This document shows, piece after piece, positions 2,071 through 9,090 of a stretch of 18,205 nt of DNA. Made by a program: the position numbers and the translations under genes. The notes under the pieces were generated by a model. The model worked only from the letters and a program-made list of their open reading frames with translations. It searched no databases and was not told the DNA's origin. The DNA comes from a virus. The stretch lies in IMG/VR virus record IMGVR_UViG_3300033405_000009. One strand, written 5' to 3'. The number at the start of each line of letters is the position of its first letter. Position 1 is the stretch's first letter.

Positions 2071-2403
2071 ATGGGAGAGTTTTGCTATTCCACGGTCAAC
2101 AGTCCTCCGACCCCGAAACAGATGGAAGAAGATCTCATCCGCCTCAACACCGAGATCTTCGGCACCAAATACATCATCAAGAAAATTGATGGTGTCAACT
2201 GGGGCTGGAAATGGTGCTTTATGCTCCCACCAGAATCAGGTTGGACTGATGCAGCCTTCTCTGTGGTTCTATTGCGGGACAAACGAATGGAGTTTAAAGT
2301 CCCGAGATCACAATGGGATGAATATTGGGAGGACCAACAGAAAATCCGCCGTAAACTTGTTCGTCTTTATGGCGGTGCCAAAAGTAAGAAACAGCGCCCC
2401 TGA
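2071..2403 (+). CDS. hypothetical protein (alternative ATG at 2122); 3' end overlaps tRNA1 by 8 nt, convergent
   Basis: 110-aa ORF with globular-looking composition (KYIIKKIDGVNWGWKWCFMLPPESGWTD...). One of very few plus-strand genes in the window. Confidence 0.4.
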   Translation: MGEFCYSTVNSPPTPKQMEEDLIRLNTEIFGTKYIIKKIDGVNWGWKWCFMLPPESGWTDAAFSVVLLRDKRMEFKVPRSQWDEYWEDQQKIRRKLVRLYGGAKSKKQRP

Positions 2404-2467
2404 CAGGATTCGAACCTGCGTCCCCGATTTTGAAGATCAGAGCTCGACCGTTGAGACTTACAGGGGC
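2396..2467 (-). tRNA. tRNA with anticodon UCA (UGA-decoding suppressor or Trp(UCA)-like); discriminator G; CCA not encoded
   Basis: Reverse complement GCCCCTGTAAGTCTCAACGGTCGAGCTCTGATCTTCAAAATCGGGGACGCAGGTTCGAATCCTGTCAGGGGC. Acceptor is 7 bp GCCCCTG/CAGGGGC. T-arm is GCAGG-TTCGAAT-CCTGT. Anticodon arm is CTGAT-CTTCAAA-ATCGG, giving anticodon 34-36 = UCA. The D-arm is irregular: a 3-bp CTC/GAG stem with a GG-containing loop. Confidence 0.65.
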
Positions 2468-2816: not shown

Positions 2817-2891
2817 TGGTGGTTCCGAAGGGGTTCGAACCCTCGTAGGGCGATTTTGAAAATCGCTGCCTGACCACTAGGCTACGGAACC
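2817..2891 (-). tRNA. tRNA with anticodon UCA (UGA-decoding), canonical cloverleaf, discriminator A, CCA encoded
   Basis: Reverse complement GGTTCCG-TA-GCCT-AGTGGTC-AGGC-A-GCGAT-TTTCAAA-ATCGC-CCTAC-GAGGG-TTCGAAC-CCCTT-CGGAACC-A-CCA. Every stem pairs. U33 and A37 are present, and anticodon 34-36 = UCA. The T-arm is palindromic (GGTTCGAACC), but only the minus-strand orientation gives a cloverleaf. Confidence 0.8.
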
Positions 2892-2897
2892 GAAAAC

Positions 2898-3878
2898 TTA
2901 ATGAAGTTCCCATGGCGGTGGACCATCCATATCATACAAGAACCCGACTTCCCAAACCTCATTCACAGGTGGATACTTGCTTTCGTAACGAAATTCGTGC
3001 GTTGTTCCACATTTTGTTCCTTCTTTCGCCAAATATTTGATGATTGAAACAACGTTCGCTCCACCTTGACCTGACTGGACGAGTTTCCGATAAGTGGCGG
3101 TTTTGATTCGCCCAATCTTGTGGAATTTGCGCTGGGCTTCTTCGCCGCCCTTGAGGAGAACATTGTAATCAACTTTCTCGTAAACTTGTTCGGCGCCCTC
3201 GAAGATGACTGTCAATTTCATCCTTTTTCCGGGGTCCACTTCGGTGATCTCGGTCTTGATTCCGACCCCGAATCCGTATGGATTCTTGAAGGTCAGATCC
3301 ACCGAATAGCAATTAGGATTTTTCCGATTGTGCGCGTTTTCTCGATGGTTTCCATTGCACTCGACTGGATAAGCCACCGTCGCATCCATCCCTTTCGGGA
3401 TATACTTGATCATTCGTGTGTGCGGTTGGCGCGAAGTGATTTCCATCCCGCTCATTAACGCGGCTGCATGAAGAGTGGAGCTTACTTGACAGACCCCGCC
3501 GCCGATTCCGGGCGTCATTTCTCCCATAAAAATGACTGGCGCGTCGATGAATCCATTCTCTGCTACGCGAGGCCCGACTACATCATTAAAACTGAACTCT
3601 TGTTGTGGATCCAACACAGTTCGAAGCTTAGTAGCAGCGAGCTCGATGTTGGTAGCTCTCGCGTTTACGTCATATTCGGTTGAATACCGACCTAACTCAG
3701 GGCTTGGACGGTGATCCGGCGGGGGAAGCCTCTCTTGTTCACTCTTGAGTACGGAGATGCCTGGTGAAATCTCCACCATCTCCGGCGGAGGTTCCGCAGA
3801 CTTCTCAGGTGGAGGCGTCGGAGGTGCTGGCCTCGAACAGGCAACCACTAAGAACAAGAGGAAAGTAAAACGCTTCAT
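2898..3878 (-). CDS. VanW-domain lipoprotein
   Basis: 326 aa. Signal peptide MKRFTFLLFLVVAC with lipobox VVAC, followed by a Pro-rich linker. Carries the VanW signature GGGVCQVSSTLHAAAL. The ATG overlaps the pyrE TGA stop (ATGA). Confidence 0.6.
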   Translation of the reverse strand: MKRFTFLLFLVVACSRPAPPTPPPEKSAEPPPEMVEISPGISVLKSEQERLPPPDHRPSPELGRYSTEYDVNARATNIELAATKLRTVLDPQQEFSFNDVVGPRVAENGFIDAPVIFMGEMTPGIGGGVCQVSSTLHAAALMSGMEITSRQPHTRMIKYIPKGMDATVAYPVECNGNHRENAHNRKNPNCYSVDLTFKNPYGFGVGIKTEITEVDPGKRMKLTVIFEGAEQVYEKVDYNVLLKGGEEAQRKFHKIGRIKTATYRKLVQSGQGGANVVSIIKYLAKEGTKCGTTHEFRYESKYPPVNEVWEVGFLYDMDGPPPWELH

Positions 3879-4444: not shown

Positions 4445-4452
4445 GGCTTACG

Positions 4453-4845
4453 TTACAGTAGGCGTCTTTGCATGAGATCGACTAATCGCATGACCATTTC
4501 TTCGTCGATATCATCACGTGGTTCCAACGGCTTGTAAGATTGCTCGTGTGGAAGTCCGAAATAAATATCGCAAATTCGGACTAGCGGAAGGCTTCCTACG
4601 GAATAGACATCAAGGATGGAACCTCGACATCTCGCTTTCGTCGCCGGGATTAACAGCCAGGAATGATCGGCCATCCCATGGTGACCGTCTTGGACCTCCA
4701 GGCCTAAGATGACTCCAACAGCCCGAGTGAGTTCGTGACAACGTAGCCCGGGAATTTCAGGGAGAGACTCCACGAGAACCCGAGCTACGCCGTACAACGC
4801 TTGTTCTTTCTTGGTGAAGACGTTGGTTACGCTATATCCTCTCAC
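4453..4845 (-). CDS. hypothetical protein (130 aa, GTG start as called)
   Basis: ORF only; TAA stop; no motif recognised. Confidence 0.35.
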   Translation of the reverse strand: MRGYSVTNVFTKKEQALYGVARVLVESLPEIPGLRCHELTRAVGVILGLEVQDGHHGMADHSWLLIPATKARCRGSILDVYSVGSLPLVRICDIYFGLPHEQSYKPLEPRDDIDEEMVMRLVDLMQRRLL

Positions 4846-5985: not shown

Positions 5986-6933
5986 TCAAGTGAGTTCTCG
6001 TACTCGTCGGACAATTTTGCGTACCCGCCATGGACGTAGCATCCCAACGACTCCGAGTTTTACAGCGGATACTCCGAGCCTCGTTAGAATCTCAGCGGCT
6101 TCCACCGACATTACCCCACCACCTACGATTAGGGGTTTCTTGAGCTTAGCCATTTTAGCTCTTTGAGCGATCTCAAGTACTAATGGAAAGATTGGATTCC
6201 CTGACATTCCACCACCCCCAATATGGGATAACGGAGAAGCAGACTGTCCCCAAATCTGATTCCAATTGATCTTATGGGATAGATTTCCCCATTTCAGTGT
6301 GTTGGAAACTGAAACTGCATCGCAAGCTGGGTGATTCATGACTTCCCGGATGATCTCCACTGAAATATCAGGTCCGAAGTTGGGGACGAGAGGGATTCCC
6401 AGAACCTTGGCAATGTCCAAAGCTCCACCAGCTTCTTCCGCAAGTTCGGACGTTGAAAGTCCAACATTCGGGCAAGAGAAATTCATTTCTAAAGCGAATG
6501 GACTTTTGAACTCCGGAATGTGAGGTTTGAGCATCTCGACGAAACTGTGAAGTTCCATCATTCTGTGGACGAGAGATGAATCCACGCTCATGAATGAGAT
6601 GAGGAACGGTCTCTCTCGAGCTTGCCATTTACCGCTCATGAGCAACGCATGAGCCCCAGGACCGCTTAATCCCACAGCATTTAGAACGGCCCCCTGAAGG
6701 AACTTAACCTTTATGCAAGAAGGGAGAAGGTCTTTCGGAGAGACTCCATCTGCCTCAAGAGGCATGTTCCCCGCACGGGGGTGGAGGGTCGTGGTTTTAG
6801 CAACGAAGGTGGCCCCTTCATAGTCAAGGCCGAATGGCTTCATTAGCCTATGATACCAATATCCATCTCCGTAAAACCCGAGGGAACCGGATGAGCACCA
6901 AACTGATCCGTATTCCGTCCCTCGTAACTTCAC
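5986..6933 (-). CDS. pyrD: dihydroorotate dehydrogenase, class 1 (active-site Cys)
   Basis: 315 aa. Motifs EMNFSCPNV, GGGGMSGNPIFPLVLEIAQRA and LIVGGGVMSVEAAEILTRLGVSAV. TGA stop. The GTG start as called is uncertain. Confidence 0.75.
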   Translation of the reverse strand: MKLRGTEYGSVWCSSGSLGFYGDGYWYHRLMKPFGLDYEGATFVAKTTTLHPRAGNMPLEADGVSPKDLLPSCIKVKFLQGAVLNAVGLSGPGAHALLMSGKWQARERPFLISFMSVDSSLVHRMMELHSFVEMLKPHIPEFKSPFALEMNFSCPNVGLSTSELAEEAGGALDIAKVLGIPLVPNFGPDISVEIIREVMNHPACDAVSVSNTLKWGNLSHKINWNQIWGQSASPLSHIGGGGMSGNPIFPLVLEIAQRAKMAKLKKPLIVGGGVMSVEAAEILTRLGVSAVKLGVVGMLRPWRVRKIVRRVRELT

Positions 6934-8271: not shown

Positions 8272-8938
8272 TTACCAGTCCCCTCGCGAGTATTCCTTAT
8301 ATTTCCATTGTCGACCAGTTAGATGGTCATTGACTTGACCATCCTGAACTCGAACAGTTCTTCTCTTATCGCCGCGCATCCCGGACCCCACTTGAGCTCG
8401 TCGATCAGCGGCTCGAGCAGAAGTCACTCTTTCATGCTCCGAAGCCCAGAGACGGGCACGAAGAAGTGAAAGAGCGGTTTCCTTGTTCTGTTTGAGGCTG
8501 CGCTCTGTTTCACATCGAACTTGAAGCCCGGACGGTTCATGCTTTAGAATTATAGCCGTTTCGACTTTATTCCTAGCTTGTCCGCCGGCTCCGGATCCGC
8601 GAGTTGGGATCCATTCGAGATCGTCTTCTCGAATATGAACCTGCGCTTCAGTCGGGATGGGTAAAACTGCGACTGTAATAGTCGAAGTCTGAACCCGGCC
8701 CCTTTTCTCTGTTGGAGGAATCCGTTGCCAGCGATGCCCGCCGGACTCATTCGCAAAGGTCTCGTCTGCTGCCTTCCCGGACACTTGGAAGGTAACGATT
8801 CCCGGTCGTCTGTCCGCTAGTTCGACGTCAAAGACCCCTCCGGACTGCCAAACGGGCGTAAATTCCGAATTGCTCTTCTACGAGGAGTTTGGCGTCTGCG
8901 CCGCCTTCTGCTGCCCTGATCTCGACTACAATACTCAT
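8272..8938 (-). CDS. class-I peptide chain release factor, RF1-like and N-terminally truncated, requiring a +1 programmed ribosomal frameshift at 8828-8833 (CUU UGA C)
   Basis: Frame 0 from ATG (8936-8938, SD AGAGG upstream) gives MSIVVEIRAAEGGADAKLLVEEQFGIYARLAVRRGL then TGA. The +1 frame continues DVELADRRPGIVTFQVSGKAADETFANESGGHRWQRIPPTEKRGRVQTSTITVAVLP...RGSGAGGQ...RTVRVQDGQVNDHLTGRQW. This aligns contiguously with RF1 domains 2-4 (EIRAGTGG...RYAEARRW/RVEIM...GGHRVQRVPATE...SGAGGQ). Shift-site context ccGGAGGggtCTTTGAC matches GGAGG, 3 nt, CUU-UGA-C. Domain 1 (about 105 aa) is absent. The recognition loop PPT fits the RF1 PxT motif, not the RF2 SPF motif. Confidence 0.75.
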
Positions 8939-9090
8939 GATCCTTACCTCTTTCCGTGTGAAGACACGAAGAACACGCGCACAAACTGTCGATCGAGGCT
9001 AAGGAGCTTCGTCGTTGACAGGCAGGGGTGCGCGGATTGGGAAGAGGATCACGTCAACCTGAATGGATGCTCTTATGGAGCTTCACATCT

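Follow-up and report, generated by a model that had tools for sequence, protein, structure and literature searches.

The +1 programmed frameshift at CUU-UGA-C is the textbook autoregulatory device of release factor 2 (RF2). What appears to be the same device is described here in a gene of the release factor 1 (RF1) type, located on the minus strand of an 18,205-nt stretch of phage DNA (IMG/VR record IMGVR_UViG_3300033405_000009, the whole of which is called the window in what follows). Its sequence makes it very probable that a programmed, Shine-Dalgarno (SD)-stimulated +1 shift, in which tRNA-Leu moves from CUU to UUU at a stop codon that is decoded slowly, yields an RF1-type factor devoid of domain 1. 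For the predicted product, a 221-residue class-I release factor of the RF1 type that lacks domain 1 and the C-terminal helix, the name mini-RF1 is proposed.

In prfB, the gene of RF2, the stop codon at the shift site is TGA in 98.6% and TAA in 1.4% of cases, and TAG in none of 8,164 genes (PMC12421855). For RF1, a 2016 review of recoding gives a counterpart as unknown; the 2006 paper on RFH (PrfH) carries a reviewer comment, with which its authors agree, that the RF1 family lacks a conserved frameshift (PMC1586002); and the 2025 survey of prfB in more than 12,000 genomes holds programmed frameshifting unlikely to regulate RF1 and reports that TAG never occurs in the motif (PMC12421855). The text of the 2013 GeneTack survey contains neither 'RF1' nor 'prfA', and the sole release-factor cluster it describes is prfB. 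Among phages, huge genomes are reported to encode RF1, RF2, transfer-messenger RNA (tmRNA) and many tRNAs (PMC7162821), and the TGA-recoded 'Jade' phages carry RF1 beside a UGA suppressor tRNA (bioRxiv 10.1101/2021.08.26.457843); truncation or frameshifting of phage release factors is absent from both of these papers, in which the word 'frameshift' does not occur (PMC7162821, bioRxiv 10.1101/2021.08.26.457843). No description of the present family, or of frameshifting in an RF1-type gene, was found in the literature searched, which omits most subscription journals; an earlier description is possible. The mechanism as such is known, whereas the gene family is new and its stop-codon logic differs.

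Anatomy and conservation of the shift cassette

The gene consists of the following elements, given in the direction of transcription:

8941..8950, minus strand: ribosome-binding site GAGGTAAGGA (GAGG/AAGGA), seen in the sequence itself 2 nt before the ATG start codon of ORF0
8828..8938, minus strand: ORF0, the open reading frame (ORF) from ATG 8938-8936 to the in-frame TGA 8830-8828, with 36 sense codons (MSIVVEIRAAEGGADAKLLVEEQFGIYARLAVRRGL) ending in ...RLAVRRGL; in its product, RF1 domain 2 is represented by its first strand and by helix alpha5, whose GGxD tip is encoded at 8905-8894
8837..8841, minus strand: internal SD-like GGAGG, with spacer GGT, 3 nt upstream of CTT and 6 nt upstream of the stop
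8827..8833, minus strand: shift site CUU UGA C, composed of CTT 8833-8831 (P-site Leu codon, slippery CUUU), TGA 8830-8828 and C 8827
8272..8829, minus strand: +1-frame ORF of 185 codons (DVELADRRPG...YSRGDW), entered at GAC 8829-8827 and followed by TAA 8274-8272; it encodes what remains of domain 2 in an RF1-type factor, together with domains 3 (GGQ) and 4
8710..8718, minus strand: codons of Pro74-Pro75-Thr76, the PxT-type 'tripeptide anticodon' loop (RF1 type)
8578..8586, minus strand: codons of Gly118-Gly119-Gln120, the catalytic GGQ motif, invariant in the family alignment

The frame opened at ATG 8938 is thus interrupted by a premature stop, and the homologous protein resumes in the +1 frame; around this stop stand the elements of a prfB-type cassette, with CTT directly 5' of it, the SD-like element 3 nt upstream of CTT, and C as the following base. 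The ribosome-binding site GAGGTAAGGA ahead of ATG 8938 supports this codon as the true start, against the GTG 8784 chosen by gene callers.

After a protein search, 68 IMG/VR loci and 80 loci of GTDB species-representative genomes were taken, which makes 149 with the window, and these were re-analysed with tblastn and by walking the ORFs explicitly. The +1 frame switch falls at query residue 36/37 in 128 of the 149 (window counted), and these 128 shifted homologs are diverse, forming 116 clusters at 90% identity with a median pairwise identity of 52% and a minimum of 30%. The stop is preceded by CTT in 127 of them and by TTT in one, against 9.1% CTT among the other Leu codons of the same genes; the base after the stop is C in 106 (83%) and G in 18, against C after only 19 of 124 true stops (15%). 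Of 124 unique homologs, 61 (49%) have GGAGG at a distance of exactly 3 nt before CTT, and shorter G-rich 4-5-mers are found at 3-4 nt in about 37 more. In conservation, ORF0 equals or exceeds the remaining protein (58% versus 51% mean identity over the 128 homologs), and it carries the alpha5 GGxD tip, which in RF1 contacts the first base of the stop codon. Five relatives have an uninterrupted gene; at the shift position they show TTA, CTC, ATC, CTC and TTG, so that none has CTT, and none has GGAGG, even though two of them encode the same RRGL peptide by other codons (CGA AGA GGT CTC and CGG CGT GGA TTA). In prfB, elements of the cassette are likewise lost when the frame is uninterrupted (PMC12421855).

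At the protein level, the search returned an RF1-like family of about 220 residues in two forms, one uninterrupted and full-length, the other consisting of ORFs that start exactly at the junction (84% query coverage). The N-termini of these junction-starting ORFs are unrelated and have nothing in common but 'GGVFD', an out-of-frame reading of GGnGGnGTCTTTGAC; the upstream +1-frame extensions are otherwise unconserved. In a library of representatives at 50% identity, more than 20 of the best-scoring clusters start matching at query residue 34-39, and the canonical RF1s of about 355 residues turn up only below about 1e-40.

The initial annotation of this DNA, made from its letters alone, had proposed a prfB-style +1 frameshift for this gene. 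The frames, the CTT-TGA-C site and the GGAGG-N3 geometry are as it described them, and the majority of relatives shift alike; among the related genomes, CTT-stop-C and the SD context are conserved, and the 36 upstream codons prove to be RF domain 2 and the best-conserved part of the protein. Its concern that the extra base might be an assembly error is answered by independent assemblies, which agree at the site, as set out below.

The stop codon at the shift site is TGA in 91, TAG in 33 (26%) and TAA in 4 of the 128 homologs. Its type flips between close relatives (L083/L078 at 96% identity, L014/L003 at 86%, L093/L090 at 84%, L125/L132 at 81%) and is spread similarly over phages (42:13) and bacterial genomes (48:20); it shows no covariation with the PxT loop, the alpha5 tip, the H193/Q variant, or phage versus bacterial origin. 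TAA is found at the shift site in 4 of 123 genes but at the true terminus of the same genes in 65 of 123; as a true terminator it is used in 26 of 30 loci below 55% GC and in 26 of 60 loci at or above 65% GC, and the window gene also ends in it. Because TGA and TAG interchange, while TAA is avoided at the shift site yet preferred at the terminus, it appears to be weak termination (UGA-C or UAG-C) that is selected at the shift site and strong termination at the gene end, rather than the stop of one particular factor.

It is very improbable that the extra T arose by error in assembly or sequencing or marks a pseudogene, or that only the 170-aa ORF (GTG 8784), or two separate polypeptides, are functional. 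Every public gene caller does give two ORFs, of 36 and 170 aa, and one relative (L129) looks disrupted elsewhere in the gene. Yet the phage sequence is identical (100%), shift site included, in every assembly (JGI, with two samples, Logan and ENA), the samples with this identical assembled sequence come from at least four projects, and the published 485-kb huge phage LR745208.1 carries the identical CGGAGGGGTCTTTGAC cassette. The 128 homologs, moreover, shift at the same residue and are free of other disruptions; ORF0 is conserved as protein and bears the alpha5 tip, which is required for reading the first base of the stop; no start codon is conserved in the +1 frame, and a start at GTG 8784 would remove two core strands; and three Ts in a row are too few for slippage during transcription. 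On these grounds transcriptional slippage was rejected, as were internal initiation and a split protein. In L129 itself (Nannocystis pusilla, about 6084-6653), CTT GAC is in frame, the extra T being absent, but upstream of this the N-terminal part has lost the frame; decay of the copy, or an error in a long-read assembly, may account for it.

Some loci depart from the common pattern. The only homolog with TTT before the stop is L049 (TTT TAG C, shift site near 6110). In L008 (6001-6654), L009 (6001-6651) and L131 (6001-6654), a stop occurs at exactly codon 37 and the same frame resumes (TAT TAG A, CTC TGA C and CTG TGA C, respectively), so that read-through, not a change of frame, would be needed; the contig of L131 is from Armatimonadota and measures 1.36 Mb, and L009 is also without a PxT loop. 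These three may be read-through-regulated genes, genes of recoded genomes, or pseudogenes. More distant subfamilies are without the frameshift but contain in-frame TGA, once or twice per gene and at positions conserved in the alignment (L045, L047, L111, L064, L123 and L128, all six at codon ~47-50; L042, L052, L056, L057, L127 and L122); in their group of about 60% GC the TGA is always at the same spot, and the positions align with polar residues, not with conserved Trp, while their low-GC group may be TGA-recoded phages.

In public annotation the window gene figures as two, a hypothetical ORF of 36 aa and a 'peptide chain release factor 1' of 170 aa that starts from the internal GTG; the same split is called in L153 (9847-9957 and 10001-10513) and likewise in L155 and L157 (JGI, Logan and ENA callers), and the family's many database entries of 190-210 aa probably carry the same mis-annotation. 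The joined proteins of the cultured Myxococcota Minicystis, Nannocystis and Pyxidicoccus were looked up as exact matches in a collection of 15 billion proteins and none was found there, which implies that no pipeline annotates the slippage.

The joined product and its genomic setting

Joined across the shift, the product has 221 residues and comprises RF1 domains 2-4, without domain 1 and without the RF1 C-terminal helix. In Pfam it matches PCRF only at profile positions 101-194 of 194, plus the RF-1 domain; in NCBIfam it scores best on prfA (2e-57), before prfB (5e-37) and prfH (3e-19), and stays below every curated cut-off. The RF1 models (prfA equivalog) give 194.6 bits against a cut-off of 400 and 190.9 against 423, the match beginning at profile position 105-114, so that the full RF1 architecture, with domain 1, C-terminal helix and a score above cut-off, is not present. 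The loop is PPT rather than the SPF of RF2 (TIGR00020: 127.6 bits, cut-off 370); the PrfH model TIGR03072 gives 69.4 bits against a cut-off of 166.65; and the ArfB model gives 35 against 100, over residues 97-133 only. ArfB/ICT1-type proteins, which have only the GGQ domain and a basic C-terminal tail, are also unlike the product in domain content, since it possesses domain 2 and domain 4 along with the PxT loop.

Residues 88-307 of Thermotoga maritima RF1 align to the joined product without a gap over the junction, and the shift position is equivalent to F140/E141 of Thermus thermophilus RF1, within domain 2; the C-terminus (...RGDW) lies about 35 residues short of the RF1 end. An AlphaFold2 model of the joined product has a mean predicted local distance difference test score of 86, with 92-95 around the junction, and superimposes on ribosome-bound T. 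thermophilus RF1 with a template-modelling (TM) score of 0.91 and a root-mean-square deviation of about 2 Å, better than on RF2; the TM score to PrfH is 0.67. An RF1-type product with a PxT-like loop instead of SPF, an absent domain 1 and a gapless junction inside domain 2 had all been read from the letters beforehand, and agree with these comparisons.

The RF1-like recognition residues are kept, namely Q71 (Q181), P74-P75-T76 and T84 (T194), as is GGQ; across the family the loop is PPT, PPN or PPS, and never SPF. On the strength of these retained residues (Q71, P74-P75-T76, T84, GGQ), and of a report on truncated RF1, the product would be expected to release peptides at UAA and UAG without coupling to RF3: as relayed in PMC1586002, which cites Mora et al., RF1 without domain 1 releases peptides and works in vivo, domain 1 being needed to stimulate nucleotide exchange on RF3.

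The IMG/VR contigs with mini-RF1 are mostly 100-536 kb long. At least 5 tRNA genes (up to 37) lie within 6 kb of the gene in 30 of 65 phage loci, nearly all co-oriented, and tmRNA is nearby in 4 phage loci (L002, L011, L053, L065); HNH endonucleases, NADAR proteins and nucleotide kinases recur among the neighbours, and a gene for a T4-type Gp23 capsid protein is found in five loci. A speculative rationale for this setting is that a factor placed among tRNA genes serves stop codons as the phage tRNAs serve sense codons. Homologs are also present in the published huge phage genomes LR745208, LR745206 and LR756501-4. The GTDB matches are overwhelmingly from Myxococcota (Nannocystis species, Minicystis rosea, Pyxidicoccus fallax, Kofleriaceae, and metagenome-assembled genomes of Polyangia); around most of these copies tRNAs are absent, and the neighbourhood consists of ordinary cellular genes (FemAB-like, sigma-70 and SnoaL among them). 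A prophage origin of the Myxococcota copies was considered and set aside, no phage markers being seen among their neighbours, where ORF calling at 70% GC is unreliable.

Two of the uninterrupted mini-RF1 genes sit on very large contigs, L150 (ENA ERZ25039587 contig_58339, 763,830 bp) and L149 (232,071 bp), in neighbourhoods made up almost wholly of ORFans without Pfam matches; these contigs may be very large phage or plasmid-like genomes. In phage tRNA arrays, ARAGORN reports four-base anticodons (taag, gatg, acca) in L003 at 3510-3587, L014 at 4451-4525, L055 at 4642-4714 and L062 at 2750-2845, which may be frameshift-suppressor-like tRNAs or prediction artefacts.

The content of the window is phage-like (amidase, VanW, phosphoribosyltransferase, DHODH-like protein, SPFH protein, Dam, many ORFans, tmRNA and tRNAs, almost all on one strand). 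Its neighbours of mini-RF1 are an SPFH protein and an ORFan, and a co-oriented RtcB-type partner in the manner of PrfH is not among them. The window gave no match to PADLOC defence models, nor, by Megablast, to GenBank phages. The phage tmRNA (888-1240, minus strand; Rfam 105 bits; tag peptide ANDNAARLAA) lies directly downstream of the amidase gene, and two tRNA genes that would read UGA lie just upstream of that gene in the direction of transcription, 5-6 kb downstream of mini-RF1:

2817..2891, minus strand: tRNA(UCA), which reads UGA, with encoded CCA end (ARAGORN; Rfam 61 bits; cloverleaf fold)
2395..2467, minus strand: second tRNA, with loop CUUCAAA (anticodon UCA) and discriminator G73, tRNA-Trp-like (Rfam 45.9 bits; missed by ARAGORN)

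The amidase gene (1467-2030), the two tRNA(UCA) genes and mini-RF1 are on one strand, and thus show the arrangement of a 'code change module', with suppressor tRNA and release factor near lysis genes. The other mark of such a module, recoded stops, is missing: no in-frame TGA was seen in about 38 kb of the phage. Of the 19 window genes, 5 end in TGA, as do 14 of the 50 genes called over these 38 kb, and the amidase ORF is intact. The verdict on recoding rests on the stops at which called genes end; the coverage of six-frame ORFs under alternative codes, and counts of ORF pairs separated by one stop, had too much noise to be used, above all at high GC. The window showed no gene for an aminoacyl-tRNA synthetase. 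Fourteen of the 19 window genes end in TAA or TAG; high-GC hosts use mainly TGA stops. A suppressor tRNA as companion of the whole family was rejected, since one lies within 6 kb only in the window and in L049, and 63 of 65 phage loci are without. The suppressor tRNA of L049 (7725-7801) has the anticodon CUA, which matches the TAG at its shift site. A link of mini-RF1 with the tRNA(UCA) genes is plausible but unproven.

Proposed mechanism and its alternatives

Translation would begin at ATG 8938 and bring, at codon 36, tRNA-Leu onto CUU in the P site, with the weak stop UGA-C in the A site. The internal GGAGG would pair with the anti-SD sequence of 16S rRNA, tRNA-Leu would re-pair on UUU, and GAC would be read next. 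Were UGA decoded first, by a factor or a tRNA, only the 36-residue peptide or a junk read-through product would arise. By this competition, synthesis of the factor would be coupled inversely to the speed at which the stop is decoded, and the site would in that sense gauge termination capacity; the competitors in this phage would be host RF2 and the phage's own two tRNA(UCA). Across the family, the regulatory logic looks like selection of a weak stop (UGA or UAG, not UAA) rather than the specificity of one factor. That ribosomes actually shift at the site, and with what efficiency, is inferred.

Several points weigh against this reading. The stimulator is not universal, as 22 of the 124 unique homologs have no recognisable SD; the identity of the stop is not tied to one factor; and there is no conserved partner gene, all-against-all clustering of 5,300 neighbouring ORFs having given no family in more than 13 of 129 loci. 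Two recognition residues are off canonical RF1, E119 being D family-wide and H193 being Q in this gene, and because of these two deviations an altered stop specificity is possible. An RF1-type product cannot autoregulate at UGA, the stop in 71% of the genes, unless its specificity is broader than its motifs suggest.

The initial annotation had gone on from the RF1-type product and the UGA stop to a code-sensing circuit, in which the shift evolved to report the decoding of UGA by host RF2 or its suppression by tRNA(UCA), with mini-RF1 as part of a UGA-reading switch. Mechanically this stands for the present gene: with UGA at the shift site, dependence on host RF2 and competition by tRNA(UCA) follow, and two genes for UGA-reading tRNAs do lie downstream, adjoining the amidase gene, much as suppressor tRNA and RF1 form the 'code change module' beside the lysis genes of TGA-recoded phages (bioRxiv 10.1101/2021.08.26.457843); the only other locus with a nearby suppressor, L049, has the matching stop. 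Across the family it is not supported, as one quarter of the genes use TAG, the type flips among relatives of 81-96% identity, phage and bacterial alike, without covariation with the recognition residues, and almost all phage loci are without a suppressor tRNA within 6 kb. In this phage, too, TGA is an ordinary terminator with no in-frame occurrence seen over the 38 kb, and a UGA suppressor would produce unproductive zero-frame read-through, not more shifting. A circuit evolved around RF2 and UGA is accordingly retained only as a tentative possibility. True autoregulation as in prfB, with mini-RF1 terminating at its own shift-site stop, is improbable. Feedback by the product would be the simplest reason why a second release-factor lineage should have acquired a +1 cassette built on a stop, at a position that is not homologous, and a giant-virus eRF1 gene bears such a device too (PMC3521657); since the product is of the RF1 type and the stop here is TGA, autoregulation would require a broadened or omnipotent factor reading UGA as well as UAG, and the toleration of both stops and the deviating recognition residues (E119D family-wide, H193Q in about 40%) could be taken in this sense. 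However, the PxT threonine, Q181 and T194 are kept as in RF1 specific for UAA and UAG, the recognition loop is the same in TGA-type and TAG-type genes, and UAA, which such a factor should also read, is strongly avoided.

A shift of fixed efficiency, which senses nothing and either keeps the yield of a potentially toxic factor low and constant or is a historical accident, tolerated and kept efficient, would account for the nearly neutral choice between TGA and TAG and for the dispensability of the shift, given that uninterrupted relatives exist; overexpression of a release factor is known to lower fitness (PMC12421855). It is rather unlikely, in that every element of the cassette is kept among relatives down to 30% identity, and the avoidance of TAA together with the selected weak +4 C points to a tuned competition with termination, which is inherently responsive to rates. 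The SD-stimulated, weak-stop shift described above can also be set in a wider frame, offered here with considerable reserve: a large undescribed family of natural RF1 paralogs without domain 1, resident in huge phages (usually in tRNA arrays) and in Myxococcota chromosomes, would have independently evolved the prfB cassette as a generic sensor of termination capacity, based on UGA or UAG, with the shift apparently replaced by an in-frame read-through stop in L008, L009 and L131. The factor may have a broadened specificity, or act without RF3, and so take over or buffer termination; in this phage it would form a module with the two UGA-decoding tRNAs that manipulates the reading of stops during infection.

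Comparison with described systems

The family would represent a widespread uncharacterised termination factor in huge phages and Myxococcota, at present split by annotation into a 36-aa ORF and a truncated 'RF1', and gives an experimental handle on how phages with tRNA arrays, tmRNA and suppressor tRNAs manage termination in their hosts. With the release factors of huge and recoded phages, mini-RF1 shares a similar context of translation genes; it differs in that no TGA recoding is apparent in the 38 kb examined and that most of its loci are without a suppressor tRNA. The class-I release factor gene of Mimivirus and Megavirus is likewise that of a viral termination factor which passes internal stops by recoding, in the way of the bacterial autoregulatory frameshift (PMC3521657), but it is an eRF1/aRF1 homolog of a eukaryotic virus that combines a frameshift with read-through, and is unrelated in sequence and host domain. 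The engineered RF1 without domain 1 has the same architecture as mini-RF1, but is a laboratory construct without a frameshift and not a natural family.

Closest in build is PrfH (RFH), with about 200-230 residues, no domain 1, a retained GGQ and the release-factor fold (PMC1586002; match to PDB 9mor). Mini-RF1 is separated from it by its score on the PrfH model (69 versus 167 bits), by its structural match (TM 0.91 to RF1 versus 0.67 to PrfH) and by the retained recognition residues of RF1; further, PrfH has RtcB as a partner, whereas mini-RF1 has neither RtcB nor any conserved neighbour, and PrfH is not reported to need frameshifting.

Closest in mechanism is prfB, which is also a class-I release factor gene and has the same elements, a G-rich SD-like sequence 3 nt before CTT, CTTT, the stop followed by C, and GAC after the shift (PMC12421855). 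As the mini-RF1 family has TAG at the site in 26% of its genes, and as its product is not expected to read UGA itself, simple autoregulation does not follow for it as it does for prfB; the family thus allows the mechanical need of the cassette, a weak stop, to be separated from the need of autoregulation, a stop read by the gene's own product. The two proteins further differ in their recognition loop, PPT versus SPF, and in the absence of domain 1 from mini-RF1, and the two shift sites occupy non-homologous positions, at codon 36 within domain 2 in mini-RF1 and at about codon 26 within domain 1 in prfB.

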